Assembly: GCA_020638735.1 (NCBI GenBank)
Contig: JACKHZ010000013.1
Span: 277,694-341,693 of the forward strand
Length of the DNA: 64,000 nucleotides
Reading direction: 5' to 3'
From: Planctomycetota bacterium
Lineage (GTDB): Bacteria; Planctomycetota; UBA1135; UBA2386
Each line of letters opens with the position of its first letter. The first letter of the stretch is position 1. Both the position numbers and the translations under genes were made by a program. A model generated the notes under the pieces. That model was not told where the DNA came from. It searched no databases and saw only the letters and a list, made by a program, of their open reading frames with translations. This document shows positions 6,744-59,299 of the stretch, piece by piece.

Positions 6744-9158
6744 ATGCGAAATCCAACTGTTCCGCGATGGCGCTGTCTGCGCATTCTCCCGCTGCTGGCC
6801 GGCTGTGCCGCGTTCGCCCAACAGCCTTCCTGGTCACCCGATTGGGCCGTGGCAGGCCTCGGTGGCACCGTCTGGGCGCTCGCCGAATACAACGGCGAAC
6901 TCTACGCCGGCGGCGAGTGGTTCGTGGCCAAAGGCGGCGTGATCCGCGGCCTCGCGCGCTTCGACGGCGTCGATTGGCAGCCGGTCGGCACCGGCGTCGA
7001 CCTGGTCAACTACACGTTCCCGCCGAGCGATGTGCGTGTCGCGGCGATGACGGTCTACAACGGCGAACTCGTGTTCGCCGGCACGTTCGACCGCGTCGGC
7101 GGCCAGGCGATCAGCTACATCGCCCGCTGGAACGGCGCCGCGTTCGCGCCGCTCGGCGCCGGCCTGTCGCTGTCGTTCGACGAAGCCGACGTGCGCGCGC
7201 TGGCGGTGTTCAACAACGAGCTCTACGCCGCCGGGCAGTTCGACCTCGCGGGCGGCCAGCCCGCGGCCGGCATCGCGCGCTGGAACGGCAGTGCGTGGAG
7301 CCCGGTCGGTTCGGGGCTGCGCATGGCCGGCGGTGCCGCGGTCGGCTACCCGCGGGCGCTGCACGTGCACGGCAACGAACTGATCGCGGGTGGCGTGTTC
7401 GGGCTCGCCGGCGGACTGACGGCGAACAACATCGCGCGCTGGAACGGCACCAGCTGGTTGGCGCTCGCGCAGGGCTCGTTCGCGCCGGTGTATGCCCTCG
7501 AGACCTTCGGCACGCAGCTGATCGCAGCCGGCCAGTTCCAGATCGGCGGCTTCACCGCGTTGCCCGGCGCCTGGAACGGAACGTCGTGGAGCGCCGTCGG
7601 CAGCAACCCGCCGGGCCTGCCGTCGGTCGCGCTGCGCACGTTCGGCAGCGCGCTGTTCGCCGACGGCGGCCAGACCGTGTGGCGCTTCGACGGCGCGACG
7701 TGGAGCAACGTCGGCGTCGTGTCGGGCATCTACAACGGCGTGCTGACGACCAACATCCGCACACTGCAGACGGTCGGCGGCGAACTGCTCGTCGGCGGTC
7801 AGTTCACGCGCGCCGGTTCGATCCCGAACCTGCCGCTGGTCGCATCGGCCGGCGCCGTCGCGTTCGACGGCGTGAGCACCTGGCGCACGCTCGGCACCGG
7901 CGAGGGCCTGGACCGCCGGATCGTGCGACTGTTGCCGTGGCGCGGCAGCTGGTTCGCAGCGGGCCAGTTCAGCGAGGCCGGCGGTGCCCCCGCGGTCGGG
8001 CTCGCGCGCTACGACGGCGATCGCTGGCAGCTGTTCGCGCGCGTCGATGGCGGCGTGATCTACGACGCGGCGATCCACCAGGACGGGCTGGTCGTGACCG
8101 GCAACTTCAGCAGCATCGCCGGCCAGGCGTTCCCGGGGGTCGCGCGCTACGACGGCGCCGCGTGGCACCCATTCGGCACGTTCGGCCCGCCGGGGCTGCA
8201 CGCGCACGCGGGCGAGCTCTACGCGTTCGGCGGTTCGGCGCTGACCCGGTGGAACGGCACGTCGTTCGCCGTCGTCGCGACGCCGCCGAGCGGTTCGATC
8301 GATGCGCTGCATTCGCACAGCGACGGTTCGCTGTATGCCGCCAACAACGACTCGGTCAACCATCGCGTGCTGCGTTGGACCGGCTCGCAGCTGCAGCCGA
8401 TCGGAACGGCGAACAACTCCGTGCAGGTGCTCGGCAGCTACGGCGGCGAACTGCTCGCGGGCGGACGGTTCAGCTCGATCGGCGGTGCCGCCGCGGCGCT
8501 GATCGGCAGGTGGAACGGCTCGCAGTGGAGTGCGATGCCGTCGCCGGTCAGCGGCTTCTCCGCGGATGCCTTCTGCGAGTTCGACGGCGACCTGTATGCG
8601 GGCGTCAACGGCGATCCCCGCGGCTTCCTGCTGCGGCTGCGCAACGGCACGTGGTCCGGACTCGGCGCGGGCATCGACGGCGTGCCGAGGCTGTTGTTCG
8701 CCGATCCCGCGGTCGCGAGCGTGTTCGCCAGCGGCGACATCCTGAACGCGGGCGGTGTGCCGAGCCGCAGCCTCGCCGAGTGGCGCACGCAGCCGGACTG
8801 GCGCGATCGCCTGCGCGGGCTCGCGGGCGCCAACGGCGAGCCGCGGTTGTCGGGGCGCGGCGCCGCACAGAGCGGTGCGACGCTGCAATGGACGATCGCC
8901 GGTCCGGTCGGCACGCTCGGCGTGCTGGCGTTCGGCTTCACCCGCGTCGACGCTCCCGCCCTCGGCGGCACCCTGGTGCCGTCGCCGGACGCGACGTTCG
9001 CGTTCGTGACCGACGCGCTCGGTTCGGCGCCCTTCGCGTTGCAGCTGCCGACGCCGACGTCGCCGGGCATCGACGTGTTCGCCCAGGCGTGGCTGCTCGA
9101 TGCCAGCGGCCCGCAGGGCCTGACCGCGACGAACGCGCTGCAGTGCACGACGCGGTGA
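6744..9158 (+). CDS. secreted beta-propeller repeat protein (repeated ARWNG..W..G blades) with shared C-terminal domain
   Basis: The ATG at 6744 gives MRNPTVPRWRCLRILPLLAGCAAFAQQ, a signal peptide. There are more than 10 repeats of the type IARWNGAAFAPLGAGL / IARWNGSAWSPVGSGL / ARYDGDRWQLF / GRWNGSQWSAM. The C-terminal ~110 aa (..FALQLPTPTSPGIDVFAQAWLLDASGPQGLTATNALQCTTR) recur in four other exoproteins here. The part of the ORF-track ORF upstream of 6744 is R-rich and probably not translated. Confidence 0.8.
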   Translation: MRNPTVPRWRCLRILPLLAGCAAFAQQPSWSPDWAVAGLGGTVWALAEYNGELYAGGEWFVAKGGVIRGLARFDGVDWQPVGTGVDLVNYTFPPSDVRVAAMTVYNGELVFAGTFDRVGGQAISYIARWNGAAFAPLGAGLSLSFDEADVRALAVFNNELYAAGQFDLAGGQPAAGIARWNGSAWSPVGSGLRMAGGAAVGYPRALHVHGNELIAGGVFGLAGGLTANNIARWNGTSWLALAQGSFAPVYALETFGTQLIAAGQFQIGGFTALPGAWNGTSWSAVGSNPPGLPSVALRTFGSALFADGGQTVWRFDGATWSNVGVVSGIYNGVLTTNIRTLQTVGGELLVGGQFTRAGSIPNLPLVASAGAVAFDGVSTWRTLGTGEGLDRRIVRLLPWRGSWFAAGQFSEAGGAPAVGLARYDGDRWQLFARVDGGVIYDAAIHQDGLVVTGNFSSIAGQAFPGVARYDGAAWHPFGTFGPPGLHAHAGELYAFGGSALTRWNGTSFAVVATPPSGSIDALHSHSDGSLYAANNDSVNHRVLRWTGSQLQPIGTANNSVQVLGSYGGELLAGGRFSSIGGAAAALIGRWNGSQWSAMPSPVSGFSADAFCEFDGDLYAGVNGDPRGFLLRLRNGTWSGLGAGIDGVPRLLFADPAVASVFASGDILNAGGVPSRSLAEWRTQPDWRDRLRGLAGANGEPRLSGRGAAQSGATLQWTIAGPVGTLGVLAFGFTRVDAPALGGTLVPSPDATFAFVTDALGSAPFALQLPTPTSPGIDVFAQAWLLDASGPQGLTATNALQCTTR

Positions 9159-12530: not shown

Positions 12531-12776
12531 CACGCCGCGAGTGTCGCCGCATCGCACTTCGCTCGGCGTCGATGGCGGTATTCGGCCCGACGGCTGCTGG
12601 TCCGCCTGCAAAGGGCGTTGTGCCCGATTTGGCCGTCGCGACCCGGGCGAACGACCTCACCGGCGCGACGTGCCTCGCGTTGGCGCGACGACCGAGTTGC
12701 CCCGGCAACGAGCCGGCGGCAACGAGCCCGCGGGAACGCGCTCGCGCGCGCACTGCGGCGCGTGCATCCTCGCGCC

Positions 12777-14107: not shown

Positions 14108-14280
14108 ACGTGCCTCGCACCCTTCGCGTACGGGCTACGCGAACACGAGATCTTCCGAACGCCGAAGCCGATCGACCGGACCGGCATGATCGAGGAGCCG
14201 AGCGGTGCGTGGGCCGGATACGTGCCGGGCAAGCCGGCGACGTTGTCGTTCCTGCCGCTCGCGCGCGCGGGCGAAGGGAG
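14108..14280 (+). other. coding-like continuation, in the same frame as 13691..14107, running up to the IS91 fragment B boundary
   Basis: The same reading frame after the TGA gives TCLAPFAYGLREHEIFRTPKPIDRTGMIEEPSGAWAGYVPGKPATLSFLPLARAGEG. This has F/Y/H/I/K/E-rich composition, unlike non-coding frames of this genome. It ends abruptly at the IS end (14281). Confidence 0.45.
14123..14143 (+). promoter_or_regulatory. candidate SECIS-like hairpin downstream of the in-frame TGA at 14105
   Basis: UUCGCGUA-CGGGC-UACGCGAA forms an 8-bp perfect stem with a 5-nt loop that has G at loop position 2. The loop starts 23 nt after the UGA. No U-tract follows, so it is not a typical intrinsic terminator. 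Confidence 0.35.
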
Positions 14281-15500
14281 GGGGATAGGTCGTCCAAGCT
14301 GCAGTCCGGCCCACCCGAACCGCACGACCGCGTCGATCCACGATCCTTCGCCCCCCGTCGACCCGCCTTCGGACCCCGCCCAACCCGGGCACTCTTGCCG
14401 AAATCCCCCTTCCAGCCAACACCCCGCCCCCGCCGCGACCCTTCGCCCGTGGCCTCCGCTCCCTCACCTCACGCGCCCCACCACTCCGGCCCTCCCGGCG
14501 GCGCCCGCGCCGGCGCTACTTGCGCCACCTCACACGGCAACCCCATCGCCCGCAGCACCTTCTCGATCGCATCCGGCGCGGTGATCGCCGCCAGCAGCCG
14601 ACGCACGCCGCCGCAATGCGGACAGACGAGCACGTCGATCGCGAACACCCGCCGCAGCAGTTCCGCCCACGGATAGCGGCGACGACGCATCGTCGCGCAA
14701 CCCGGCCGACCGCCGTTCGGTGCATGCGGGACCGTTCTGCGTCTCAGGCGCAACGCGAGCACCGCCTGCACGGCCCGCTGCTCCGGCACCGCATCGACGC
14801 CTTCGTCCGCCACCGCCTCTACCTCATCCACCCGAGGCACAACCCGCGAACGCAACCCCGCCGCCGGCGCCAACACGCCGTGATACGTCACCAGGTGCCG
14901 CCGCGGCGGCGGTACCAATGCCAGCAGCCGCTCGATCAGCACCTCCGGCTCCATCACGACGTGTGTCGAACCGTCCTTCCACCGCCGCTTCAGCGAGTAC
15001 GCCACCCGCCCATCCGGCAGCAGTGACAACCGCGACTCCGCGATCGCCGCACGACCCGCGTAGCGCAGCAGGTGCTCCAATCGCTTGCGATCCCCCGCCG
15101 CGACACGCACCCCGGCGTGCAGCGAGAAGCCGTCGTGATCCGCGCACAGCGGGCCCTTCACGAACGGTTCCGCACGCGTGCCGCGACCGACCCGCACGTC
15201 GATCTGCCCGGCGCGTTCACCCAGCGCGGCGCGACCCGTCACCGCACCCGATGCCAGCGTCAGCATCGTCTGCTGCTCGCCATCGACGACCTCGCTCGCA
15301 TCCGCCGCATCGCCTTCGTCCCACCACTTGCCCGCCTTCTTCAGCTCCCTCGTCACACGCGCGCCGATGCGCCGCACCTGTGCTGCCACGTCCGCGTCGG
15401 TCAGCCCTTCGTGCTCGTGCCACGCGACCTCCCCGCGGCCGGGCTGCCAGGAGTACACACCGTCGAGCCACACCACATGGAAGTGCACGTTCAGCCGCAG
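14281..15500 (-). mobile_element. IS91-family element, fragment B: oriIS-like end plus ~340 C-terminal codons of the transposase (5'-truncated)
   Basis: The transposase part runs from [33 protein letters not shown]... to ...CPHCGGVRRLLAAITAPDAIEKVLRAMGLPCEVAQVAPARAPPGGPEWWGA. The tail is nearly identical to copy C. Comparison with copy D shows homology ends after ...gttcagccgcag (15500). By chance the fragment is fused in frame to the neighbouring gene remnant, which produces the 531-aa track ORF 14469..16064. Confidence 0.85.
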
Positions 15501-17734
15501 GAGGAACGCCGTCTCGAGCGCGAACAGGCCGCGGCCGACGCGCACCTCGCCGTGCGCGACCGTCTCCGTGTAGTCGAAGAAGTCGGGTCCGAGCGTCACC
15601 GTGTCGCCGAAGGTGCGTTCGCTGCGACCGCCGTTGATGCCGAACTCCAGCACCGAGCCGAGGTAGTCCCAGCTGGCGAAGGCGACCGGCTCCTGCTCGG
15701 CATAGCCGACGCCGACGCCGCCCTGCACGACCTGCGTCAACAGCGGATCGGCGAACAGCCCGTAGACGCCGTAGCCGCCAGTCGGCACCGCGAACGTCGA
15801 CGGCGACCAGAAGCGCGGGCGCAGCTCGGAGAGGCCGGAGTACGGCTCGACGCTCAGCGCGGCACCGGCACCTGGAGTCGCCGCGGGCAGCGGCGTCGCG
15901 GCGCGCGACACGCCGGTCGCCTGGCGGTTGCTCGGCTCCACCGGCGCCGGCCAGAGCAGCTGGATCGACGGCACCTCGGTCGGCGGTGGTGGTGGGGTCG
16001 TTGGCGATGCGCGCGACGAACGGGCCGCGCGCGTCGTGATCGACGATCGCCAGCGTGCGACCATCGGGCGACGGCACGCAGGCGATGACGCCGCCGATGA
16101 CGTTCGTCACCGGGGTGACCTTCGCGTTCGCGCCGTCGAGGGGCCAGGCGGTAGGCGTTGGCGACGCCGGTGGCATCCGCGCAGCAGAACAACGCGTCAC
16201 CGACCGCCGTCCAGCACGGGTGCAGGATGCGACCGCGCACCTGCCACAACACGGTGCGCGAGCTGGCATCGCCGAGCGAACCGAGCACCAGGCGCGAGCC
16301 GTCGCGGTCGGTCTCGACCCAGACCAGCTCGCCGTCGTGGGCCGGACGCAGCGCCGGGCTCCACGGCGTGCCCTCCGTCGGCAGCACGCGCGCGCCGCGC
16401 CGAGTTCGCCGTCGACGAGTTGGTGCACGACGAGTTGCTGACCGCCGCCGTCGCGCAGCTGCACCGCGACCACCGTGCGCGCGTCGCCACGCAACGCGCC
16501 GGCGTCCGGCTGCAGCATGCGCCAGCCGACGACTTCGCCGTCGACGACCAGCCGGCTGATGCCGCGCCAGTTGTATTCGTGGTAGACGACCCCGGTGTCG
16601 CGCCCGCCGTCGGGCAGCGCGCGAACGGCGCCCAGCGCGCGCGTCGGCGTGTTCGACCCGGCCAGTTCGCCGTCGGCGGTCAGGGTGTGCAAGCGGCCTC
16701 GACCCTGCGCCGGCCAGCCGCCGAACACCAGCTCGCCGTCCGGGCGCCACGCCGGCGCCCCCACCGACATGTCGACGGGGGTCAGACGTGCGGTCGCGGT
16801 CACCGGCGCGCTGCGCAGGGTTGCCAGCGCCGCGGCCTGTTCGGCGGCGAGGGGCCTGGCGCGCGCGCGCCAGCAGCGCCTGATGGCGTTGCCCGACGGC
16901 GTCGCGCGAACCGCGATCGAACACGAACGCCCACGACTTCGCCTGCTGCTCGACGAGACGCCACACCGACGCGCGATCGCCGAAGTAGCCCTCGAGGAAG
17001 CGGGTGTAGGCGGTGCCGTAGGTGTAGGCGCGACCGCCGAACGGCCATTCGTGGTAGGTGATGCGCCAATCGCTCTGGTCGGGGATCGCGGCCGCCGCCG
17101 CGTCGAGCCGCCAGATCATGTGCGTCAGCGGATCGCGGCCGCGACCGGCCCAGACCCGCGTCGGGTCGGCGTAGCTGGTCTCGGCCCACACGCCGAGCCC
17201 TTCCTGCCAGAAGCGCGGCATCGTCTGGTGCGCGGGCGTCGACAGGTAGAAGACCAGCGTGCTGAACAGGTCGTTGGGCAGCACGCGGCCGAACACCTGC
17301 TCGAGCACGCCGCGCACACCGTGGTTGCGGTCGTTGCTGATCTGGTGGGCGAACTCGTGCACCAGCGTGCGCTCGGCGTCGAAGCCGCCGGCGAAGATCG
17401 TCGACTCGGGCTTGGACGGCGCGAGCTGCAGCTGCACCAGCGGGAACGGCGTGACGAACGAGTAGCCGTTGTGCGAATCGGACCAGTCCCAGATCAGCAG
17501 CCGCAGCTTCTCGCCGGGCACGAACCCGGAGTCGGCGATCATGTGCGCATAGAGCTGGTCGGCGCGCGCGACGAGGTCGCGCAGGTCGTCGGCGGCGGCG
17601 GCCGGCACGTAGGCGCGCAGGTGCTCGGCGTCGATGGTGGCGATCGCCTCGTCGGGCCAGATCAGCGTCTGCGCCGGCGCAGCGACACCGGCGACCAGGG
17701 TGGCGAACGCGAATGCGGCGCGGCGTCGGATCAT
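15501..17734 (-). pseudogene. disrupted gene for a large envelope protein (N-terminal HExxH-type domain, TolB-like beta-propeller repeats, Omp85-like C-terminal barrel); at least 4 frameshifts and 3' truncation by IS91 fragment B
   Basis: Coding-quality sequence hops between three frames. Frame of 17734: signal MIRRRAAFAFATLVAGVAAPAQ, ...TLVHEFAHQISNDRNHG..., good to about 16870. Frame of 16803: VGAPAWRPDGELVFGGWPAQGRGRLHTLTADGE...VAVQLRDGGGQQLVVHQLVDGE, to about 16385. Back to the first frame: TPWSPALRPAHDGELVWVETDRDGSRLVLGSL, to about 16140. Second frame: DGANAKVTPVTNVIGGVIACVPSPDGRTLAIVDHDARGP, to about 15985. Third frame: VEPYSGLSELRPRFWSPSTFAVPTGGYGVYGLFADPLL...FGINGGRSERTFG, up to the IS junction. 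Confidence 0.7.
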
Positions 17735-17900: not shown

Positions 17901-19409
17901 ATGCAGCTGATCCGCCTGCTCACCGCCACCGCCGTCTCGCTCGCCGGCGTCACCGCGCAGCAATTCACCTCACAAGAGCTCCCGACCGGGCACGGCAAGC
18001 CGGTGCGCGCCCTGCCGGGCGACTTCGACGGCGACGGCACGCTGGACCTGTTCGTCGTGCAGCTCAACAACTTCGTCCAGGGCGGCTTCCAGGTCTGGTC
18101 CCGCCTGGCCAACGGCACTTGGGGCATGCGCGTGAAGCACGCTTTCGGCAAGGTGTCGGGTGCGGCCGTCGCCGAACTCGACGGCGATGGACGTCCGGAA
18201 GTGATCCTCGCGGCGGCCAACTCGCCCGTATTTCCCCTGAACTCGGTCATCGTCATCCGCTTCTCGCCGCGCATGGAGCCGACGTTTACGACCGTGGCGT
18301 CTGGCGGGGGCGAGTTGGCGCTGCTGCGCGGCGACCAGGACGCGTTGCCCGACGTGTTCCTGTTCTCACAGTCGAACGTCTCTTTCCTGCGCAACCTCGG
18401 CGGCGGCAACTTCGCGGCGGCGGTGGACACGACGATCGTGCCGCCGACCTCATGGGAGGACACGCTGCGCATGAACGACTTCGACGGCGACGGCTTCGCC
18501 GACCTGCTGTTCGTGGCGCGCATGCCGGCGGAGCTGGTGCTGTATCGCGGCAACGGGGCGGGTGGCTTCCTGCCGGCGATCGTGACGCCGATACCGTTCT
18601 ACACCTGGAACGGGGCGCTGACGATCGATGCCGACATCGATGGCAACGGGATCCGCGACGTGATCGTCAGAGGACGCGTGATGCTCGGCACCAACAGCGG
18701 CACGTTCGTCGACACGACCGTGGTGATTCCTGGAAACCCCTTCGACTGCGGCGACGTCGACGGCGATGGGCGGACCGACGTGTTCAGTGAAGTGCCCGGG
18801 GGACTGACCCCCTACCTGCAACAAGCGCCGTTGGTGTTCACCGCGGGCAATGCCCTGCCGCTGGGCAGCGGCGCTGCTCGCAGCGTTCTCGACGTCGACC
18901 AGGACGGCTTCCTCGACGTCCTGCGACTTCACGTCGACACCGTCGGGCCGATCCAGGCGAACCTGTACACTCGGGATCGGCCACACCAACCGCCGCACGT
19001 CTGGCCCTACGGCATCGGCACACCCGGCTGCAAGGGCCACATCGCGCTGAGCGCCAACCGCGATCCGGTCGCCGGCGACCCGGGGTTCGCGATCACGGCG
19101 ACCAACGCCCCGACCTCGGCGATCGGCGTGCTGGCAGTCAGCTGGCAACTGCTGCGGCCGGAGCCGTCCCAACCCGGCGGCCTGGGGTTCGACTTCGTGC
19201 TGCCGCTGTCGCCGTCCTACGTCGCGGCGGTCGTGCCGTTCTTCGGCAACACCTACGGGCAAGCCCACTTCCCCGTGCCGCTGCCGGCGGCGGGTTCGTT
19301 CCTGATGCAATGCCAGGCGATCTGGCTGGCACCAGACGGCGACGGCGCGTGCAGCGCTTCCCCGCTCGGCTTCGTCAGTTCGAACGCGCTGCAGGTGCTG
19401 AGTCACTGA
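17901..19409 (+). CDS. secreted FG-GAP/VCBS-repeat (integrin-alpha-like beta-propeller) protein with shared C-terminal domain
   Basis: The ATG at 17901 is preceded by AAGGAGA (17890-17896). The signal peptide is MQLIRLLTATAVSLAGVTAQQ. Repeats of the type GDFDGDGTLDLFVV, ELDGDGRPEVIL, NDFDGDGFADLLFV, DIDGNGIRDVIV, GDVDGDGRTDVF and LDVDQDGFLDVL are present. The C-terminus ...AHFPVPLPAAGSFLMQCQAIWLAPD....GFVSSNALQVLSH matches the shared domain. Confidence 0.85.
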   Translation: MQLIRLLTATAVSLAGVTAQQFTSQELPTGHGKPVRALPGDFDGDGTLDLFVVQLNNFVQGGFQVWSRLANGTWGMRVKHAFGKVSGAAVAELDGDGRPEVILAAANSPVFPLNSVIVIRFSPRMEPTFTTVASGGGELALLRGDQDALPDVFLFSQSNVSFLRNLGGGNFAAAVDTTIVPPTSWEDTLRMNDFDGDGFADLLFVARMPAELVLYRGNGAGGFLPAIVTPIPFYTWNGALTIDADIDGNGIRDVIVRGRVMLGTNSGTFVDTTVVIPGNPFDCGDVDGDGRTDVFSEVPGGLTPYLQQAPLVFTAGNALPLGSGAARSVLDVDQDGFLDVLRLHVDTVGPIQANLYTRDRPHQPPHVWPYGIGTPGCKGHIALSANRDPVAGDPGFAITATNAPTSAIGVLAVSWQLLRPEPSQPGGLGFDFVLPLSPSYVAAVVPFFGNTYGQAHFPVPLPAAGSFLMQCQAIWLAPDGDGACSASPLGFVSSNALQVLSH

Positions 19410-20074: not shown

Positions 20075-20151
20075 TCCACGGCGCGTCGGCCGGCCTCACT
20101 CGAAGTGCCGCGCCGCGAACTGCAGGTAGAACTGCCAGTCGCGCTCGCTGA

Positions 20152-21341
20152 GGGGATAGGTCGTCCAAGCTGCAGTCCGGCCCACCCGAACCGCACGACC
20201 GCGTCGATCCACGATCCTTCGCCCCCCGTCGACCCGCCTTCGGACCCCGCCCAACCCGGGCACTCTTGCCGAAATCCCCCTTCCAGCCAACACCCCGCCC
20301 CCGCCGCGACCCTTCGCCCGTGGCCTCCGCTCCCTCACCTCACGCGCCCCACCACTCCGGCCCTCCCGGCGGCGCCCGCGCCGGCGCTACTTGCGCCACC
20401 TCACACGGCAACCCTATCGCCCGCAGCACCTTCTCGATCGCATCCGGCGCGGTGATCGCCGCCAGCAGCCGACGCACGCCGCCGCAATGCGGACAGACGA
20501 GCACGTCGATCGCGAACACCCGCCGCAGCAGTTCCGCCCACGGATAGCGGCGACGACGCATCGTCGCGCAACCCGATCGACCGCCGTTCGGTGCATGCGG
20601 GACCGTTCTGCGTCTCAGGCACAACGCGAGCACCGCCTGCACCGCCCGCTGCTCCGGCACCGCATCGACGCCTTCGTCCGCCACCGCCTCTACCTCATCC
20701 ACCCGAGGCACGACCCGCGAACGCAACCCCGCCGCCGGCGCCAACACGCTGTGATACGTCACCAGGTGCCGCCGCGGCGGCGGCACCAATGCCAGCAGCC
20801 GCTCGATCAGCACCTCCGGCTCCATCACGACGTGTGTCGAACCGTCCTTCCACCGCCGCTTCAGCGAGTACGCCACCCGCCCATCCGGCAGCAGTGACAA
20901 CCGCGACTCCGCGATCGCCGCACGACCCGCGTAGCGCAGCAGGTGCTCCAATCGCTTGCGATCCCCCGCCGCGACACGCACCCCGGCGTGCAGCGAGAAG
21001 CCGTCGTGATCCGCGCACAGCGGGCCCTTCACGAACGGTTCCGCACGCGTGCCGCGACCGACCCGCACGTCGATCTGCCCGGCGCGTTCACCCAGCGCGG
21101 CGCGACCCGTCACCGCACCCGATGCCAGCGTCAGCATCGTCTGCTGCTCGCCATCGACGACCTCGCTCGCATCCGCCGCATCGCCTTCGTCCCACCACTT
21201 GCCCGCCTTCTTCAGCTCCCTCGTCACACGCGCGCCGATGCGCCGCACCTGTGCTGCCACGTCCGCGTCGGTCAGCCCTTCGTGCTCGTGCCACGCGACC
21301 TCCCCGCGGCCGGGCTGCCAGGAGTACACACCGTCGAGCCA
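20152..21341 (-). mobile_element. IS91-family element, fragment C: oriIS-like end plus ~330 C-terminal codons of the transposase (5'-truncated)
   Basis: Almost identical to fragment B from the tail through ...[23 protein letters not shown]. Homology to B stops after ccgtcgagcca (21341). On the ori side it abuts a 17-codon remnant of a minus-strand gene (..SERDWQFYLQFAARHFE*, stop at 20096). Confidence 0.85.
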
Positions 21342-21861
21342 GCTCGGCAGCGGCCTGACCGAGCTGAGCGCGTCGGCGAGCTCGATCTCGGGGCGCGTGG
21401 TCCGCAACGCCGAGATCGCCACCGAGACCCGTGCGCGCAGCACGTCGGCGGCGGAGCTGTTGCAGCGGCTCGGTCAGACGACGCGCAACATCGGCGAGAT
21501 CACCGGCATGATCCGCGACGTCGCCGACCGCACCAACCTGCTGGCGCTCAACGCCTCGGTCGAGGCCGCGCGCGCCGGTGAAGCTGGCCGCGGCTTCGCC
21601 GTCGTCGCCGGTGAGGTCAAGGAGCTGGCCAAGCAGAGCCGCAGCGCGACCGGCGAGATCTCGGCGCAGCTGGCAGAGATCTCCAACCAGGTCGCCGCGT
21701 CGGTCGAGGCGGTCGACAAGATCTGCAAGGACATCGACGCCGTCGCCGACAACACCAGCGAGGTCGCCGCCGCCGTCGAACAGCAAGCCAGCGTCGTGCA
21801 GGAGCTGAGCATGACGGCCGAGACGCTCGCGTCGCGCTCGGGCGTGATCCCGGCGAATTGA
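21342..21861 (+). pseudogene. 3' fragment of a methyl-accepting chemotaxis protein gene (signalling domain only), 5'-truncated by IS91 fragment C
   Basis: From the IS junction the + frame reads ...[61 protein letters not shown]...[16 protein letters not shown]. This is the highly conserved MCP hairpin-tip signature. No sensor, TM or HAMP part is present. Confidence 0.85.
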
Positions 21862-23976: not shown

Positions 23977-26900
23977 ATGCCGCTCCCGTTCGCCGGACCC
24001 GACCGCCTGCTCGCGCACTACGCCCGCACCGGCGACGCGCGTTCGCTCGGCCGGCTGTTCGACCGCACCGCGCCGGAGCTGCTGCGGGTCGCGCTGTGGC
24101 TGGTCGGTGACCGCCACGACGCCGAGGACCTGCTGCAGCGCACGTTCGTCGCGGTGATGCAGTCGCGGGAGCGCTACGACCCGGCGCGGCGCGCGGTGCC
24201 GTGGATGTGCGGCGTGCTCGGCAACCTGGCGCGGCGGCTGCACGAGCAGCGAGCGCGGACGGCGCGGGACGTGCCGATCGAAGGGGTCGCCGAATGTGCG
24301 GGTGCCGGCGACCCGGTGCGCGCGGCCCGCGACGCCGAACTCGCCGCGGCGGTCGCGCGCATGCGCGACGCGCTCGGCCCGCCCTACGCGGAAGTGCTGG
24401 ACCTTCACCTCGGCGAAGGGCTCCTGGCCAACGAGATCGCGACGCGCCTCGGGCGCCCGGCCGGCACGGTGCGCACGCAGTTGGTGCGCGGTCTCGGCCT
24501 GCTCAAACGTCACCTGCCGAACGGCTTCGTCGCCGGGCTGCTGCTCGCCGGCTCGGCGCGCGCGGCGGTGCTGGTGGCGGCGCAGGCTGCCGTGCGGCAA
24601 CAGGTGGTCTCGGCGGCGCTGGCCGCGCAACCGGCGGGCGCCGCGGCGGGAACCGCGGCGCTCGCGATCCAGATCGCGGGGATGACGATGGGGAAGAAGA
24701 TGCTGTGGCTCGCACCGGCGCTGCTGCTCGCGCTCGGTGGTGGCGTTCTCTGGTGGCAGCAGGATTCCGCCGCGGCGCCGGTTGCGCCGGCGCCGCTGGC
24801 GGCGGAGGTGGAGGTCGTTGGGCGTGATGGTTCGTCGCGCGAGCCCGTCGCGTCGGCAGCGGAGCGCGTGGCGGCGGTGGCCGGGGACGCGCTTCCCGAG
24901 CCAGATCCCGACTGGGCGACGTTGGTCGTGCGGCTGAAGTGGGAGGACGACGGTTCGCCGGCGGTCGGGGTCGGCATCCGCGCCCAGCCGGATCCTGGGC
25001 TGCCGACGCGCATGCGTTGCGGGCTCACCGGCGATGCCGGGGCGGTGACGTTGCGCCGGTTGCGTCCGGGCAGGGTCGTCGTCGACTCGCACTTCAGTGT
25101 GCCCAAGTGGATCGACGTCGAGGCCGGTCGCGTGCAGACGCTCGACCTGACGGCGCCGCGCGGGGAGACCGTCGAGGGCATCGTGCTCGACGCCGCAGAA
25201 CGGCCGGTCGCCGGTGCGCGCATCTGGTTGTCCGACTCCGGCAGCGTCTGGCGCGGCTTCGAAGTGGCGACCACGGGCGCCGATGGGCGGTTCGCGATGA
25301 CGGCCCGCGGTGGCCATGTCGGCGCGCGCTGTGCCGGCTATGTGCCGTCGCGGTTGCGTATGCTGACGCCCGGGCACGGTGCGTTGACGATCCGCCTCAC
25401 GGAGGCAGCCGGCGCGGTGCACGGGCGCGTCGTCGATACGAAGGGGCAGCCGGTCGCGGAGGCGTTGGTGGCCATCGGCTGGCTCGGCGGCAACGTGATC
25501 CCCGGCAGCACGCGCGACGAGTACTACACGGCGCCGACCCGACCGCGCATCGTCACCGACGTCGATGGCCGCTTCTCTTGTGATGGCGTAGCGCCGGGTT
25601 CGACCGAGGTGCAGGCTTGGGCAGCTGGCTTCGGTCCGGCGAGCACGACGACGCTGGTCGCGGTCGACGCGAGTGCGGAGGTCATGCTGGTGCTCGAGCC
25701 GGGTGCCGTGGTCGAAGGCGTCGTGCGGGATGCCGGTGGTGGCGCGGTCGCCAACGCGCGCGTCGGCCGTGCCGTCAGCTACTACACGTTTGCCGCGGTC
25801 GGGGCTTCGACCGATGCCGAAGGGCGCTTCCGGCTCGTCGACCTGCCGGCGGGGGAGGTGCCACTGAAGGTGTGGCGCGATGGGCGCGACGTCACTGCGC
25901 AAACGGTGGCCACCATCGCCGGCGCGGTGACGACCTGGAACCCCGTGCTCGACGAGGGCGCGGTACTGCGCGGCCGCGTGCTCGCACCGGACGGTTCGCC
26001 GGTCGCTGACCTGACGGTCGGTGTGGTGCCCGACAACCAGGGGCCACTCGATCCCGAGACGACGACCGATGCGGATGGGGCCTTCGTGCTCGACGACATC
26101 CGCAGCGTTCCATTGACGCTGCGCATCGAGGGCTCTTGCCCGCTCGCGGAGCGCCGGTTCGATACCGCACCTGCCGCTGCGCAGGTCCTGCAGCTCACCG
26201 ATCGCGAGTGGCCGTCGGCCAGTGTGAGTGGCCGCGTGCTGGGTGTCGACGGTGCGACCGTCGCGGCGACGGTCTCGGTGCACCAAGCGTGGTGGCGTAC
26301 GGGGCCGCAGCGGGTCACCGACGAGCGCGGAGGGTTCGTGTTCGAGCGCCTGACACCGGGTGACTACCGCGTCGCCGTGCACGCGCCCGGCTATGGCGAG
26401 TTGCTGCTGCCGCAGCTGCACTTGCAGCCGGGCGAGCAGGTTCGTTTGCCTGACGTGCAGCTACGACCCGCTGGACGCATCGAGTTCGAGTTCCGGCCAT
26501 GCGAGGAGAACGCTTCGTTCGGCATGCTCCAGTTGCTGCGCGACGACGGGGTCACGGTCGGGCACGTGATGCCGGACGGTGCCGTCGCATCCGCAGAGCT
26601 GCCGGCAGGTGACTATCGGGCGATCGCCTGGGGCAACCACTCGGTGGCCGTGGTGGGCTTCCACGTCGACAGCGGAACTACGAACCGTGCGGAGCTGGTG
26701 TTCGCGCCGGCGCACCGCGTCGAGTTCGTCGTGACGTGGCCGGGTCGGGAAGCGCCGCAGCGCCTGCAGCTGATCGTGCGCGACGGCGGGGGCGGCATCG
26801 TCGGTACGCGCTACTTGGAGCCGTCGAGAACGGGGAACGGAGGGTCGCTCGATTGTCAGGTCGCGTTCGCCGTCGGTGCCTACAACATCGAAGCGCGAAT

Positions 26901-26994: not shown

Positions 26995-27000
26995 TTCGGC

Positions 27001-31793: not shown

Positions 31794-31820
31794 TGAGTGC
31801 GCCGAGGCGCCCGCCGGCGA

Positions 31821-33017
31821 TCAGTTGATGCGGAACGCCATCGCCGAACCGAGCAGGAACGGCGCGGTGACCGTCGCGCCGGCGCCCTGCACGGCGAAGG
31901 TCACCCCGACCAGCAACGGATTGTTCGGCACCGGCAGGTAGAGGTCGAAGCGCTGCGTCGAGGTCAGCGTCTGCGCGATGGCGAACGCGGAAGTCGGATC
32001 GAGCAAGAGGTCGCCGATCGGAGTGCTGATCGGACCCGCCTCCGCGTGCGCACCCAGCATGCCGACGTAGCCGTTCTCGGAGGCGACGGAGAGGCGCGTC
32101 ACCCTGCCGATGGAAAGCGGCGAATCGCACCAGGCAACCGGCGTGACGACCTGACGATCCACCTGGACGAGGTGCGCCTCCGACAACCCCTCGGCGCCGA
32201 GCACCGGCTCGAGCCCGCGGGGGTCGTCGCCGAGGAACTGGCCGAAGAACCCGCCCGCGATCGCCATCGCGCGGTCGAACACCTCCGGACCCGCCGCGCT
32301 GAGCCCGGCGACGTTCATGTGGTCGCAGCTCCAGTCCATTCGGTAGTGGAACTTGAGCCCCTCCTTCGGCGCCAGGTACTCGTAGAACGGCTGCGCGTGC
32401 AGCAGCGGCGGTGTGATCTGGTCACCTTCGCCAGAGACGATGCCGAACGGGGCGTGCACGCTCGCCGCCGGCAAGCCCGGGTCGTGCGGCGCGAGCGCCA
32501 GCGCGCACTTGTAGCCCGGATTGCAGAGCGGCCCCGGCACGTCGTACATCACGTAGGCCGCGACACCGCCGCCCATCGAGTGCCCCATCACGCCGACCCT
32601 CTTCATGTCGAGCCGCTGATAGAACGGCGAAGCCGGGTCGCTGTTGGTCGCGGCCAACGCGCCGAACATCGCCCGCCCGTCGTACTCGAGCGCCAGATAG
32701 CTCCACTGGCCCGTGTTGAGCATCACGGTGACGAAGCCGCGGCTCGCCATGCGATCGCCGATCGCCGCGTAGTCGCTGCCGACGAAGCTGTAGCCGTGCA
32801 AGAACACGATCACGGGGCATCTGCCGACGTGCGGGCTCATCGGCACATCCTGGCCCCCGACGTCGGCCGGATAGAACACCTCGGCATCCAGCACGGGCGT
32901 GCCGTTGCCGGTGGTGTTGGCCCAGGCGACGTCGCGCATCCCGACGCCACCCACCTGCGCCGTGGCGATGGACGCCGTGGCGACGATCGCCAGCAGAAGT
33001 GCCCGGTTGTTGCGCAT
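31821..33017 (-). CDS. secreted alpha/beta hydrolase, cutinase/polyesterase- or chlorophyllase-like (GHSMGG), with shared C-terminal domain
   Basis: The signal peptide is MRNNRALLLAIVATASIATAQ. The hydrolase core is PVIVFLHGYSFVGSDYAAIGDRMASRGFVTVMLN, with nucleophile elbow VGVMGHSMGGGVAAY. Candidate acid and His residues are in SGEGDQITP and SCDHMN. The C-terminal ~100 aa (...FDLYLPVPNNPLLVGVTFAVQGAG....LLGSAMAFRIN) resemble the shared domain. Confidence 0.8.
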   Translation of the reverse strand: MRNNRALLLAIVATASIATAQVGGVGMRDVAWANTTGNGTPVLDAEVFYPADVGGQDVPMSPHVGRCPVIVFLHGYSFVGSDYAAIGDRMASRGFVTVMLNTGQWSYLALEYDGRAMFGALAATNSDPASPFYQRLDMKRVGVMGHSMGGGVAAYVMYDVPGPLCNPGYKCALALAPHDPGLPAASVHAPFGIVSGEGDQITPPLLHAQPFYEYLAPKEGLKFHYRMDWSCDHMNVAGLSAAGPEVFDRAMAIAGGFFGQFLGDDPRGLEPVLGAEGLSEAHLVQVDRQVVTPVAWCDSPLSIGRVTRLSVASENGYVGMLGAHAEAGPISTPIGDLLLDPTSAFAIAQTLTSTQRFDLYLPVPNNPLLVGVTFAVQGAGATVTAPFLLGSAMAFRIN

Positions 33018-34551: not shown

Positions 34552-34573
34552 GGGTGCGGTCGCTCCGGTGCGC

Positions 34574-34966: not shown

Positions 34967-35053
34967 TTCCCGACCTCATCCACGTCGCCAAGACGCCTCC
35001 GCCGCGAATCGTTCCTGTCACCGACGCCGGGTGCTCCGTAGATTGCGCCCGCA

Positions 35054-37349: not shown

Positions 37350-39677
37350 ATGCGCCTACCTTCCCCTGCAGTCTCCCTGATCTCCGCCGCGGCGCTGTCG
37401 GTCGCGGTCGCCAACCTCGCGCCGCTCTCGACCTCCACCGACACGGCGATGCCGGGTACGCAGCCGCTCGAGGCCGCCTTGCTCGGCCCGTTGCCGGCCT
37501 GCGACGGATGCCACGGCTACTACGACCAGGACGTCGAGCCGGTCGAGAACTGGATGGGCAGCATGATGTCGCACGCCGGCCGCGACCCGGTGTTCTGGGC
37601 GGCGCTCGGCGTCGCCGAAGGCGACCTGCCCGGGGCCGGCGACTTCTGTCTGCGCTGCCACGCGCCGCGCGGCTGGCAGGAAGGGCGCGCCTTCCCGACC
37701 GATGGCTCGGCGCTCGATCCGATGCTGGACCAGTACGGCGTCGAGTGCGGCCTGTGCCATCAGCTCGTCAACCCGGACAAGAGCGAACACGGCGGCGTGC
37801 AGTACCTGCCCTACGTCGCCAACGACGGCGGCAACCCGGTCGAGGGCTACTACGGCAGCGGCATGGCCGTGCTGGCCGGCAACCAGACACGCTACGGTCC
37901 GTACGCCTCGACCACCGCGGGTCACCCGTTCGTGCAGTCGAAGTTCCACCGCTCCGCGGAGATCTGCGGCACCTGTCACGACGTCTCCAACCCGGTCACC
38001 GGCGACCTCGCCGCCAACAACGGCGCGATGACGCCGCTGCCGCCCGGTCAGTCGAGCGGCGTGTCCGGCGCGCCGGTGACCCAGAAGGCGGCGTTCCTCA
38101 ACCCGCCGTTCGCCTACGGCATCGTCGAGCGCACGTTCAGCGAGCACTTCGCCAGCGCGCTGTCGACCACGCCGGTCGCCAACTACGCGTCGCTACCGGG
38201 CGACCTTCAGCGCGGCGCGATCAAGCGCGCCTACGACCAGGCGCAGCTCGCCGGCATGTCGGGCGATCACGAGGACGGCACCGCGCGCTTCTTCTCGTGC
38301 CAGAGCTGCCACATGGAGCCCGTGGTCGGCGAAGGCGCGGCGTTCGGCATCTCGCCGGTGCGCTACGACCTGCCGAAGCACGACATGACCGGCGGCAACA
38401 CCTGGGCGCCGCTGGCGATCCAGTGGCTCGACGGCCAGTCGCCGAGCCTGCTGCGCCTCGGCAAGAACATGTCGCCGACGATGACCGCGGCGATGGACCG
38501 CGGCGTGCTTCGCTCGCGCGCGGCGCTGCAGCGCGCGGCGGCGCTCGACGTGCAGAACGTCGACACGCTGCGCGTCACCAACCTGACCGGCCACAAGCTG
38601 CTGACCGGCTATCCCGAAGGCCGTCGCATGTGGCTGCGCATCCGCTGGATGAACGAGCAGCTGCAGGTGATCCAGGAGCAGGGCTCGTACGGCAGCTTCC
38701 AGACGACCGTCAACGGCCAGAACTACACCGTCGAGTCGATCACCGACCCGAACGCCCACGTCTACGAGGCCAAGCTCGGCATCACCCAGGACTGGGCGCT
38801 GCAGCTGCTCGGCATGGGCGTGTCGCCGTTCACGCCGCTCGGCTTCGACCGCGTGACGGGTGCGCCGACGACGGACCTCGCGACGCTGGCGACCAGCGCG
38901 CCGGGCACCGCCGAGCCGACCTTCCACTTCGTGCTCAACAACACGCTGCTCGAGGACAACCGCATCCCGCCCTACGGCTTCGACCGCGACGAGGCCGAAC
39001 ACCGCAACGCGCTGCCCGTGCCGGCGACGGCGTTCGGCAACCCGGCGCCGGGCGGGACCTACGAGCACTTCGACGACGTGCAGCTGACGCCGCCGCCCGG
39101 CGCCACGCGCGCCGAGATCGAGCTGATGTACCAGACCGCGAGCTGGGAGTACATCCAGTTCCTGCTGCTCGCCAACCCGGGCACCAGCGCCTTCCTCGCC
39201 TCGGCCGGGCAGGAGCTGTTCGACGCCTACATGGCCACCGGCAAGTCGACGCCGGAGGTGATGGCGACCGCGCGCTGGTGCGAGATGCCGGGCTCCAACG
39301 AAGACGCCGTCCTGCGCACGTCGATCGACAGCGCGACACCGGACGCGACCTGCGCCAAGCGGGTCGAGGGAGGCGACGTGATGCACTTCGAGATCACCAG
39401 CCCCAACGGCACCCACACCAACAGCCTCGGCCTGCTGGTGCTCGAGCTGCACCAACCGAGCGCGCCGCCGATCCCGGGCCTGATCCCGGGCCTGTGGCTC
39501 GACGAAGCCCACGGCCTGGTCACGATCAACGGCGTGCCGCCGGGTGGCTGGAGCTGGAGCATCCAGCTGCCCTCGAGCGTGGTCGGCAGCCTGCGCTGGC
39601 AGGCGCTGCTGTGCAACGCGACCCCGGCGAACGGCATCTTCGCCGCGACCGACGCGTTCGACTTCTACCAGGACTGA
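37350..39677 (+). CDS. secreted multiheme c-type cytochrome-like protein (5 CxxCH motifs) with shared C-terminal domain
   Basis: The ATG at 37350 gives MRLPSPAVSLISAAALSVAVA, a signal peptide. The CxxCH motifs are CDGCH, CLRCH, CGLCH, CGTCH and CQSCH. The C-terminus is ...WSIQLPSSVVGSLRWQALLCNATPANGIFAATDAFDFYQD. Confidence 0.8.
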   Translation: MRLPSPAVSLISAAALSVAVANLAPLSTSTDTAMPGTQPLEAALLGPLPACDGCHGYYDQDVEPVENWMGSMMSHAGRDPVFWAALGVAEGDLPGAGDFCLRCHAPRGWQEGRAFPTDGSALDPMLDQYGVECGLCHQLVNPDKSEHGGVQYLPYVANDGGNPVEGYYGSGMAVLAGNQTRYGPYASTTAGHPFVQSKFHRSAEICGTCHDVSNPVTGDLAANNGAMTPLPPGQSSGVSGAPVTQKAAFLNPPFAYGIVERTFSEHFASALSTTPVANYASLPGDLQRGAIKRAYDQAQLAGMSGDHEDGTARFFSCQSCHMEPVVGEGAAFGISPVRYDLPKHDMTGGNTWAPLAIQWLDGQSPSLLRLGKNMSPTMTAAMDRGVLRSRAALQRAAALDVQNVDTLRVTNLTGHKLLTGYPEGRRMWLRIRWMNEQLQVIQEQGSYGSFQTTVNGQNYTVESITDPNAHVYEAKLGITQDWALQLLGMGVSPFTPLGFDRVTGAPTTDLATLATSAPGTAEPTFHFVLNNTLLEDNRIPPYGFDRDEAEHRNALPVPATAFGNPAPGGTYEHFDDVQLTPPPGATRAEIELMYQTASWEYIQFLLLANPGTSAFLASAGQELFDAYMATGKSTPEVMATARWCEMPGSNEDAVLRTSIDSATPDATCAKRVEGGDVMHFEITSPNGTHTNSLGLLVLELHQPSAPPIPGLIPGLWLDEAHGLVTINGVPPGGWSWSIQLPSSVVGSLRWQALLCNATPANGIFAATDAFDFYQD

Positions 39678-39777
39678 CGCCCGCAGGACCGGGCGACCGC
39701 CGGCGATTGCGGTCGCCCCCGAGGCTGCGCATGCTGGGCCGACCCGGCCCGCCGGGCGCCCCGCCTCCTGCTCCGCC

Positions 39778-57435: not shown

Positions 57436-57861
57436 CTACCGCGGCGCGCGGAGCACCAGGTTGTCGCCGCGCACGACGAACACCGCCTCGTCGCGCGGCA
57501 GCAACCGCCCGGGGGCGATGAGCGTCCGGCCGACGTCGTAACTCGCCACGACCTTGCCGCCGGCGACGAACACCAACAGCTGGTACTCGTCGAAGTTCTG
57601 CTGCTGCGATCGCGCTGCCCCGCCCCAGGCGATGCCGATCGCCCGGTCGACGTCTTCCGGCGACTGGTAGGGCGTCGCGACGTACATCGCGTCCCAGTCG
57701 AAGCCGGCCAATTGGTCCATGCGCACCTCGGCGCCTTCGTGCTTCTTCACCGCCGCGCGCAGCACGTCGTCGAGGCGCAGCCGGCCCTGCCACCACACGG
57801 CCGCGCCGCCGAGCAGCACGACGCCGACGAAGGCCAGGGTGCCGAGCCTAGAACGCGCCAA
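57436..57861 (-). CDS. hypothetical small membrane-anchored protein
   Basis: 141 aa with an N-terminal TM helix (LGTLAFVGVVLLGGAAVWW). The soluble domain has normal composition (DQLAGFDWDAMYVATPYQSPEDVDRAIGIAWGG...YQLLVFVAGGKVVASYDVG). Its start overlaps the 3' end of the upstream propeller gene by 14 nt. Confidence 0.6.
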   Translation of the reverse strand: MARSRLGTLAFVGVVLLGGAAVWWQGRLRLDDVLRAAVKKHEGAEVRMDQLAGFDWDAMYVATPYQSPEDVDRAIGIAWGGAARSQQQNFDEYQLLVFVAGGKVVASYDVGRTLIAPGRLLPRDEAVFVVRGDNLVLRAPR

Positions 57862-59299
57862 CGGTCAGGCTCAGCGCGTTGGTCGCGGTGATCGGGCCGA
57901 AGTCGAGCGTCGGCGTGACCTCGAACGACACCCACTGCTCGCGCAGCTCGACACCTGCCAGCGCCGGGTCGTCCGGCAGCGTCAGCGTCGACGACGCCGA
58001 GCCGCCGCTCGGCAGCAGCACGCCGATCACATCGGGCGCCGCCTGCAGCACGCAGCCGGGCACACCGGTCGCGAACACCGCGTCGAGGCCGACCGACACC
58101 GGCGAGAAGCCGTGCACGACGACGACGATCGACGACGACGGCAGACCGCTGCCAGTCGTCTCGACGACGCCGCCGGTCCACGGCAGCGACGCCGTGATCG
58201 CGCCCTGGCACGCGCCGCCGAGGTCGGCGACGAGCGCTTCGCAGGTCGTCGTCAGTCCCATCACCGACGGCAGCTGCACGCCGCCCGCGCCGAAGAACTG
58301 ACCGCCGGCGGCGACGTCGCCGTCGGGCATGACCAACAGGTCGTTGCACGCGCCGGACGTCGCCGGCCCGATCGGCGTCCACGTCGTGCCGTCGAAGCGC
58401 TTCAGCGAACCCGAGATGCCGCCGGTGACGAGATCGCCGTCGGGCAGCGCCACGACGACGGTCTGGTAGTCGAAGTTGCCAGGCACGATCGCCCACGTCG
58501 CGCCGTCCCAGACGAACGTGTCGGCGTTGGCGGCGACCAGCGAGCCGTCGGCGCGCGCGGCGAGGTCGCGCACGGTGCTCGACAGCCCGCTGCCGAACGC
58601 GACCCACGCGCTGCCGTTCCACCGCGCGACCTTGCCGGCCATGACGCCGCCGATCTGCGAGAAGCTGCCGCCGGCGACGAGCTCGCCGCCGGGCAGCTGC
58701 GCGAACGCGCGCACGTCGCCGTTGGCGCCGGCGCCGAACGCCGACCAGGCGCCTCCGTCCCAGCGGGCGATGTTGGCCGCGGCGGTGCCACCGGCCATGT
58801 TGAAGAACCCGCCGACGACGAGGTCCCCGTTCGGCAGCTCGTTCAGCGCGTAGACGTAGGCCACCAGCGAGCTGAACGTCACGCCGCCGCCCACCGCCGA
58901 CCACGACGCGCCGTCGAAGCGCGCCAGCCGGTTGACGGTCACGCCGTCGATCGTCGTGAACTCACCGCCGACCACGAGGGCGCCGTCGGACGTGGCGAGC
59001 ATGCACAGCGGGCGGCCGTTGGTCGTGCCGAGCGTCGTCCACGACGAGGACTGTTCGTCCCATTGCACGACCGCGCCGCTGGTCCCCGCGCCGCGCCCGG
59101 CGACGAGCTGCGCCGTCAGCGGTCCAGCGCCGTCGGCGTCCCAGGCGGCCATCGACCAGACCTGCGTCGAGGCGGTGTCGAACGGACCATCGGTCCGCCA
59201 CTGCGTCGTGCACTGCGCCACGACGGAGGTCGCGAACGCCGAGGTGGCGGCCGCGCACGCCAACGTTCGCAGCAGATTGCCGGGCGGGATCAGGAGCAT
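57848..59299 (-). CDS. secreted beta-propeller repeat protein (paralogue of 6744..9158) with shared C-terminal domain
   Basis: 483 aa with signal peptide MLLIPPGNLLRTLACAAATSAFATSVVAQ. Blades include ARFDGASWSAVGGG, IARWDGGAWSAFGAG, VARWNGSAWVAFGSGL and KRFDGTTWTPIGP. The C-terminus is ...STLTLPDDPALAGVELREQWVSFE....GPITATNALSLTVGAF. Confidence 0.85.
   Translation of the reverse strand: MLLIPPGNLLRTLACAAATSAFATSVVAQCTTQWRTDGPFDTASTQVWSMAAWDADGAGPLTAQLVAGRGAGTSGAVVQWDEQSSSWTTLGTTNGRPLCMLATSDGALVVGGEFTTIDGVTVNRLARFDGASWSAVGGGVTFSSLVAYVYALNELPNGDLVVGGFFNMAGGTAAANIARWDGGAWSAFGAGANGDVRAFAQLPGGELVAGGSFSQIGGVMAGKVARWNGSAWVAFGSGLSSTVRDLAARADGSLVAANADTFVWDGATWAIVPGNFDYQTVVVALPDGDLVTGGISGSLKRFDGTTWTPIGPATSGACNDLLVMPDGDVAAGGQFFGAGGVQLPSVMGLTTTCEALVADLGGACQGAITASLPWTGGVVETTGSGLPSSSIVVVVHGFSPVSVGLDAVFATGVPGCVLQAAPDVIGVLLPSGGSASSTLTLPDDPALAGVELREQWVSFEVTPTLDFGPITATNALSLTVGAF

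Follow-up and report, generated by a model that had tools for sequence, protein, structure and literature searches.

A C-terminal domain shared by diverse exported proteins of Planctomycetota: a possible localisation module

Five proteins encoded in a 64-kb stretch of DNA from a Planctomycetota bacterium (contig JACKHZ010000013.1 of assembly GCA_020638735.1, positions 277,694 to 341,693; the whole stretch is called the window, and its G+C content is 69-74%) end in copies of the same C-terminal domain (CTD). The domain, predicted to be an all-beta sandwich of ~115 residues, belongs to a real and large family that has had no name until now; the novelty lies in the family, C-terminal localisation domains as such being already known. 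All five proteins, labelled P1-P5, have a single copy of the CTD that stops no more than a few residues from the stop codon, and all five have a Sec signal peptide. The way in which the domain is distributed over exported proteins leads us to favour, with reserve, a role as a localisation (sorting or surface-anchoring) module.

The Five Window Proteins

Pfam searches assigned the five proteins to four distinct passenger types. P1 (6744-9158, plus strand) and P5 (57848-59299, minus strand) are both DUF5122/Rax2-type beta-propellers, P2 (17901-19409, plus strand) contains FG-GAP repeats, P3 (31821-33017, minus strand) is a PETase-like alpha/beta hydrolase, and P4 (37350-39677, plus strand) is a multihaem cytochrome of the cytochrome c7-like type. 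An earlier, sequence-only reading of the window had described them as five otherwise unrelated secreted proteins with a shared tail that might be a sorting or secretion tag. The translations contained all five open reading frames (ORFs) and all motif strings quoted in that reading; the description of the proteins as unrelated holds for the four passenger types, and not for the two propellers.

The N-terminal signal peptides that had been proposed for all five proteins were recovered, as read from the translations and with a crude heuristic scan. They are of the Sec type and span 6744..6818 in P1 (plus strand; MRNPTVPRWRCLRILPLLAGCAAFA followed by QQ), 17901..17957 in P2 (plus strand; MQLIRLLTATAVSLAGVTA followed by QQ), 32958..33017 in P3 (minus strand; MRNNRALLLAIVATASIATA followed by QV), 37350..37412 in P4 (plus strand; MRLPSPAVSLISAAALSVAVA followed by NL), and 59216..59299 in P5 (minus strand; MLLIPPGNLLRTLACAAATSAFATSVVA followed by QC), so that the predicted cleavage sites, marked by an arrow, read AFA↓QQ, VTA↓QQ, ATA↓QV, VAVA↓NL, and VVA↓QC, respectively. 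The CTD is carried by five of the approximately 11 signal-peptide proteins of the window. An S46 dipeptidyl-peptidase and a DUF7133/cytochrome-c protein have signal peptides and lack the CTD, and a hidden Markov model (HMM) of the five sequences revealed no sixth copy among the six-frame ORFs of the window.

Evidence for a Common Domain

Homology of the five tails was not provable from the window alone. Pairwise similarity, on which the sequence-only reading had let its proposal depend, was insignificant in an all-against-all BLASTP comparison of the last 140 aa (best E=0.012 in a 5-sequence database), and in leave-one-out HMMs built from window sequences, P1 was the only one recovered ahead of all other ORFs outside the training set, at E=0.19. 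Sequences from outside the window were brought in because pairwise scoring is too weak for domains at 20-30% identity, and profiles made from these outside sequences nevertheless picked all five ORFs. One such profile, ct1.hmm, whose training set contained no window sequence, was run against the 532 six-frame ORFs of the window, and ranked P1 (1.6e-38), P5 (2.2e-20), P2 (2.2e-8), P3 (3.9e-4), and P4 (0.072) ahead of every other ORF, the next-ranked ORF having an E-value of 1.2; all five matches were C-terminal. An outside profile of 227 sequences gave E-values of 1e-36 for P5, 8e-21 for P1, 1.4e-9 for P2, and 2.8e-5 for P3, and matched P4 in the correct place with a domain E-value of 0.057. 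The proposal that the five C-termini follow one pattern was thus borne out, the five being singled out among 532 ORFs by profiles of outside sequences.

Profile-profile alignment with hhalign gave probabilities of 99.4% for P1, 96.9% for P2, 82% for P3 (a local alignment), 56.6% for P4, and 99.8% for P5, the P4 alignment comprising 98 co-linear columns with P=1e-4. The last 125 aa of P2, P3, and P4 were additionally shuffled 3000 times with their composition preserved. The real scores were reached by none of the 3000 shuffles, with 33.3 bits for P2 against a shuffle maximum of 11.4, 22.3 bits for P3 against 11.0, and 14.4 bits for P4 against 10.0. In an alignment of 24 sequences, the Pro of an 'LP' motif and a Gln located ~10 residues later were invariant, P3 and P4 included. 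By these sequence comparisons, the membership of P1, P2, and P5 is certain and that of P3 is well supported, whereas P4 is the weakest and least certain member: its assignment comes from hhalign (P=1e-4) and the shuffles, and that of P1, P2, P3, and P5 from profile E-values of 1e-36 to 2.8e-5.

The CTD of P1 spans 8793..9155 on the plus strand; its start had earlier been placed at 8830 and is corrected to near 8793, and the length of the domain is about 110-125 aa. This 'P1-type' copy reads ...GG-TLVPSPD...LQLP...GIDVFAQAWLLD...TATNALQCTTR, and ct1.hmm aligns with residues 684-803 of the 804-residue protein (E=8e-38). The P2 copy (19008..19406, plus strand) is aligned by allc.hmm, an outside profile, over residues 466-595 of 598 (E=1.4e-9). 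The P3 copy (31824..32165, minus strand) is divergent, its core, residues 366-423 of the ORF, being matched by allc.hmm with E=2.8e-5, and the P4 copy (39345..39674, plus strand) is the most divergent of all, with an allc.hmm domain E-value of 0.057 over residues 802-885 of 891. The P5 copy (57851..58195, minus strand) belongs to the commonest subtype, 'P5-type', with the pattern ...PGC-x-L...PD...LP...G...Q...ATNALSLTVGAF-COOH, and is aligned by ct5.hmm over residues 369-483 of 483 (E=6.6e-39). The five tails end in ...NALQCTTR, ...NALQVLSH, ...MAFRIN, ...AFDFYQD, and ...LSLTVGAF.

Distribution of the Family

A profile of seven sequences (alignment A2), run with HMMER against 1.84 billion representative proteins, retrieved 2,230 of them at E<=1e-3, of which 82 also reach E<=1e-10. 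In the best 150 hits, which vary in length from 70 to ~900 aa, the match stops 2-5 residues short of the protein end, with the sole exception of P0031, an unrelated repeat protein. Public databases name the members 'hypothetical protein [Planctomycetes bacterium]' or after their passengers, and a word-indexed protein search for relatives returned only 3-5 fragments, without names or Pfam domains.

The database relatives split into two large subtypes. The P5-type domain follows DUF5122 propellers and has the consensus ...GxGCPSSGGSNTL..LPW..TFRA.GTGLP...PGCDLLVAPDIL...TGTAQS.LFLPNTPPLVGVTFFHQMVPIELD...ITATNALQLTAGxF-COOH. The first part of the P1-type consensus is ..W.DLG.GLAG..G.P.L.G.G.L..GS..F.L....P.A...LVLG.....P..GG.LVPSPD, and it continues, after LVPSPD, with ....TD..G.A....WP...P.G....QAW..D..GP.GFTASNAL.... 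An aromatic last residue was observed in 70% of the top P5-type hits, P0004-P0151 (F in 90, Y in 12, and W in 3 of 149), for which the typical ending is ...TATNALQLTAGxF-COOH; such an ending is absent from P1-type tails.

A scan of one genome per species of the GTDB, performed with a narrow P5-type pattern and thereby biased to that subtype, yielded 53 loci. All are in metagenome-assembled genomes of Planctomycetota, and several genomes have 5-15 loci each. As far as sampled with this pattern, the CTD is specific to uncultured Planctomycetota. Six-frame translation of the 53 loci, each taken with +/-10 kb around it (909 kb in total), revealed 101 CTD-carrying ORFs, that is, 48 beyond the seeds. 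The CTD ends within 10 aa of the stop codon in 93 of the 100 stop-terminated ORFs (median 0.5 aa) and is present in a single copy in each. In one locus (L009) the protein extends 54 residues beyond the CTD, and three carriers (L021, L042, and L047) are apparently frameshifted. A signal-peptide-like N-terminus was detected by the crude scan in 81 of the 101 carriers.

The passengers are varied. Those of 36 non-P5-type carriers include Kelch, DUF5122, FG-GAP, PQQ, GSDH, RCC1, and LVIVD propellers, as well as beta-lactamase/BTRD1, di-haem oxidoreductase, Laminin_G_3 (LamG), subtilase, and PKD domains, to which the window adds the PETase-like hydrolase and the multihaem cytochrome. In broad terms, the carriers thus comprise propellers, hydrolases, proteases, proteins with lectin-like modules, and haem proteins.

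Predicted Fold and Search for Known Families

The CTD of P5 was modelled with AlphaFold2 using 29 homologues. The model is confident, with a predicted local distance difference test score (pLDDT) of 95.3 and a predicted template modelling score (pTM) of 0.86, and consists entirely of beta-structure, with ten strands. The model of the P4 copy, which is not independent because its input alignment included other family members, is likewise all-beta, with a lower pLDDT (71.8) and seven strands; 41 of its 48 strand residues align with strands of P5. Foldseek searches of PDB and BFVD with the P5 model gave no close relative (best E 3-4e-3, TM about 0.45-0.55), and the P4 and P5 models have the Foldseek neighbours 2a74_B, 3l3o_B, and 5cl2_B in common.

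The statement that no named family could be assigned to the tails was upheld. Neither Pfam nor NCBIfam matched any of 35 CTD copies (the five window tails and 30 P5-type copies) at E<=1, the CTD profile matched no PDB sequence at E<=10, and literature searches yielded no relevant description of a planctomycete C-terminal sorting domain or of a glutamine rule in this phylum (see below). The scan also turned up no already described adhesion or immunoglobulin (Ig)-like family, and the bias of the domain towards the C-terminus is strong. The candidates tried in Pfam and NCBIfam, namely the CTD of type IX secretion systems (T9SS), PEP-CTERM, GlyGly-CTERM, LPXTG, dockerin, PPC, and the choice-of-anchor domains, gave no significant family matches. 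A beta-signal of outer-membrane proteins was also considered for the tails and rejected, both because of a mismatch in the alternation of hydrophobic residues and because the last residues of P1-type tails are polar and vary.

Comparison with Known C-Terminal Modules

Two known modules come closest. The type A CTD of the T9SS of Bacteroidota (Por_Secre_tail, TIGR04183/PF18962) is likewise a folded beta-sandwich of ~100 aa at the extreme C-terminus of Sec cargo with type I signal peptides, and it, too, is attached to very diverse passengers, is present in many paralogs per genome, and is restricted to a single lineage. With about 10 strands and 115-125 aa, the planctomycete model is larger than the T9SS CTD, for which the figures are about 7 strands and 70-100 aa. 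The TIGR04183/PF18962 HMMs gave no match at E<=1 in the 35 copies, and the 50 best PDB neighbours that Foldseek gave for the P5 and for the P4 model included none labelled as a T9SS CTD (best E 4e-3). The hosts differ as well, being Planctomycetota here, a phylum not known to have a T9SS. The planctomycete domain also differs in having rare N-terminal copies. Dockerins resemble the planctomycete domain in being terminal (usually C-terminal), single-copy modules on many unrelated secreted enzymes of one organism; they determine location by docking to a common partner and tolerate an occasional non-C-terminal placement. However, dockerins are small and helical, built from a duplicated Ca-binding segment, and not beta-sandwiches, whereas the fold predicted here is all-beta; PF00404 gave no match, and no cohesin-like partner was identified.

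The PEP-CTERM/exosortase, GlyGly-CTERM/rhombosortase, and LPXTG/sortase systems share with the planctomycete domain the C-terminal position, the presence on signal-peptide proteins, the variety of passengers, and lineage-specific expansions, and they were discovered through the same type of pattern. Their tails are tripartite and ~20-35 aa long, with a motif followed by a transmembrane helix and then by a cluster of basic residues. In contrast, none of these three elements is present in the five window tails, and the unit that they share is a folded domain of ~115 aa. The PPC domain (PF04151) is a C-terminal beta-sandwich of secreted proteins; its HMM does not match the planctomycete domain, whose carriers are mostly non-peptidases. 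By analogy, the planctomycete CTD would resemble the T9SS CTD or the dockerin most, but it belongs to neither family.

Possible Function of the Domain

A localisation role is proposed because a single terminal copy, Sec signal peptides, unrelated passengers, and many lineage-restricted paralogs are the traits of the T9SS CTD, the dockerins, and PEP-CTERM. It is from this distribution that we infer the role, and with it a putative partner and any cleavage of the domain. On these analogies we hold it somewhat probable that the CTD is a localisation module. The idea of a sorting or secretion tag, as put forward in the sequence-only reading, thus retains the support of the distribution (C-terminal and single-copy domains, signal peptides, diverse passengers, and paralogs within one phylum), whereas the named analogues that it cited were excluded as families and no processing or secretion partner was found. 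In the mechanism that we envisage, the cargo would be exported by Sec and its signal peptide cleaved, after which the folded CTD sandwich would be recognised by a partner common to all carriers. This partner might then move the cargo over the outer membrane, in the manner of the T9SS CTD, or alternatively might keep it at the cell surface or in a complex, in the manner of a dockerin. A more specific version, which we regard as doubtful, is that the CTD is the cargo mark of an undescribed C-terminal-domain-dependent pathway for secretion or surface display in a clade of Planctomycetota, one that would be T9SS-like while using an unrelated tag and presumably unrelated machinery.

Several findings weigh against a localisation role, and they also speak for another explanation: that the CTD is a generic Ig-like module outside the cell, with a binding (for example of glycans or other surfaces), adhesive, or spacer function and no part in sorting, and that its C-terminal position is the outcome of gene construction followed by duplication. 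The Foldseek neighbours are generic sandwiches of Ig, fibronectin type III (FN3), complement macroglobulin (MG), TRAP, lytic polysaccharide monooxygenase/carbohydrate-binding module (LPMO/CBM)-like, and effector types, and such a generic Ig-like sandwich is commonly seen in modules for binding or spacing as well. Beta-propellers make up roughly half of the examined non-P5-type passengers, and many carriers are paralogous propellers in tandem, so that part of the passenger diversity reflects paralog expansion. In locus L052, the CTD lies directly behind the signal peptide, N-terminal in a longer protein, and scores 51.5 bits, which is a solid N-terminal occurrence; a weaker N-terminal copy, in a protein with a C-terminal transmembrane helix, is present in L026. 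Such positions would not be compatible with a signal that requires a free C-terminus. Finally, no processing or secretion gene was found near the carriers among the neighbours in the 53 loci and the window; the only recurrent neighbours, Ser/Thr kinase genes with tetratricopeptide repeats (TPR) and genes for extracytoplasmic function (ECF) sigma factors, look like signalling modules paired with propeller proteins, and not like sorting machinery. However, CBM, PKD, and Big domains are often internal or tandem, whereas this domain is single and located at the stop in 93 of 100 ORFs and 148 of 149 database hits. Moreover, enzymes, haem proteins, and propellers have the same tail with no obvious common ligand, and no known binding-domain HMM matches it. 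We therefore regard a generic binding module as a possible but unlikely explanation.

We give still less weight to a PPC-like role for the CTD, as a folding helper or C-terminal pro-domain that would assist the cargo in folding or hold it in an inactive state while it is exported, and would later be cleaved off. The domain is C-terminal and single-copy on exported proteins that include hydrolases and a subtilase, and its folded beta-sandwich is close to PPC in size; but PF04151 and all other Pfam models lack a match, the carriers are mostly non-enzymatic propellers that need no inhibition, and no cleavage motif is conserved at the junction across subtypes, which makes this alternative improbable. 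Least credible, to the point of near-dismissal, is the absence of any common domain, with low-complexity, Ala/Gly/Pro-rich tails resembling one another by chance in a genome of 71% G+C. The non-significant BLASTP pairs and leave-one-out HMMs from the window are what such chance likeness would predict, but it fails to account for the five ORFs being singled out by outside profiles, for real scores that composition-preserving shuffles never reached, for the terminal position shared by 2,230 relatives in the database, and for a confident AlphaFold2 fold. Chance likeness is refuted for P1, P2, P3, and P5, P4 alone being individually weak. Returning to the localisation module, the N-terminal copy of L052 leans, as judged from its sequence position, towards docking or anchoring over a signal that needs a free C-terminus.

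Glutamine at Predicted Cleavage Sites

Counted with a crude heuristic over the window and loci L001-L053, 114 of 250 signal-peptide-like N-termini and 53 of 74 CTD carriers have Gln as the residue immediately behind the hydrophobic/small run, just past the predicted cleavage site. This excess of Gln is far above expectation. Examples in the window are AFA↓QQ, VTA↓QQ, ATA↓QV, and VVA↓QC, given above, together with AAA↓QG, APA↓QT, and LAA↓QT, and Gln-type signal peptides are located, for example, at 6744-6830, 17901-17970, 32950-33017 (minus strand), 59210-59299 (minus strand), 35054-35150, and 12531-12600. In Bacteroidota, cleavage of signal peptides exposes Gln (PMC5837995), and the bias observed here resembles the 'Q-rule' of pyroglutamate N-termini described for the Bacteroidetes (PMC5837995). 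The same post-cleavage Gln bias in CTD-carrying Planctomycetota may be seen as a further likeness to the hosts of T9SS. Planctomycetes are unmentioned in that study, and a literature search found no link of the Q-rule to Planctomycetes.

Neighbouring Genes and Other Features of the Window

A gene directly downstream of P1 (9858-12530, plus strand) encodes a Ser/Thr protein kinase whose C-terminal part consists of TPR repeats, and such kinase-TPR genes are neighbours of CTD carriers in 12 of 54 regions, namely the window and 11 loci (L002, L005, L011, L015, L017, L026, L030, L035, L036, L045, and L053). Three proteins of about 1000-1100 aa, encoded at 23977-26994 (plus strand), 54376-57354 (minus strand), and 59421-62762 (minus strand), have an N-terminal ECF sigma-70 factor (regions 2 and 4) fused to CarboxypepD_reg and Big_1 repeats; the P5 gene lies between two of the three genes, and shorter ECF sigma genes recur by CTD carriers in other loci. 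These arrangements suggest that a kinase/ECF-sigma signalling module is paired with secreted propellers.

Directly downstream of P5, a 142-codon ORF (57436-57864, minus strand) with a coding-like G+C content at third codon positions of 0.94 overlaps the 3′ end of P5 by 17 nt. Three direct copies of an IS91-family element, whose minus-strand ORFs encode Y2_Tnp and Zn_Tnp_IS91, are located at 14280-16100, 20151-21470, and 26998-28350. They are spaced by 5871 and 6847 bp and are 95-100% identical over the reported 300-nt repeat copies, and the P2 gene sits between the first and second of them. An ORF at 51161-54367 (plus strand), when read from the first possible GTG, combines DUF790 (residues 90-372) with a FadB-like 3-hydroxyacyl-CoA dehydrogenase/enoyl-CoA hydratase; the two parts may be genuinely fused, or the ORF call may have joined separate genes. 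Rfam and tRNA scans revealed no RNA genes in the window.

Sequence matches to metagenomes place the organism in activated sludge or wastewater: 94-97% of the words sampled from 31000-40000 were present in two activated-sludge metagenome runs, and part of them in many wastewater runs. Contigs of one wastewater metatranscriptome are identical to 31818-32059, where P3 and its CTD end, and to 39321-39533, in the CTD-coding end of P4. The CTD ends of P3 and P4 may be transcribed, or these matches may reflect DNA carry-over.

Implications

The transport of proteins across or onto the outer membrane of Planctomycetota is poorly understood, and the libraries and literature searched contain no description of a T9SS- or exosortase-type cargo tag for a large part of the planctomycete secretome. 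If the CTD were indeed the mark of a dedicated secretion or display pathway, that pathway could serve a substantial share of the exported proteins (five of approximately 11 signal-peptide proteins in the window), alongside a putative Bacteroidota-like Q-rule. The CTD HMM offers a list of cargo for each genome, a handle for phylogenetic profiling of the machinery, and a portable tag for reporter fusions. Even if the domain were merely a binding module, it would still provide an annotation for more than 2,000 protein clusters at present called 'hypothetical'.

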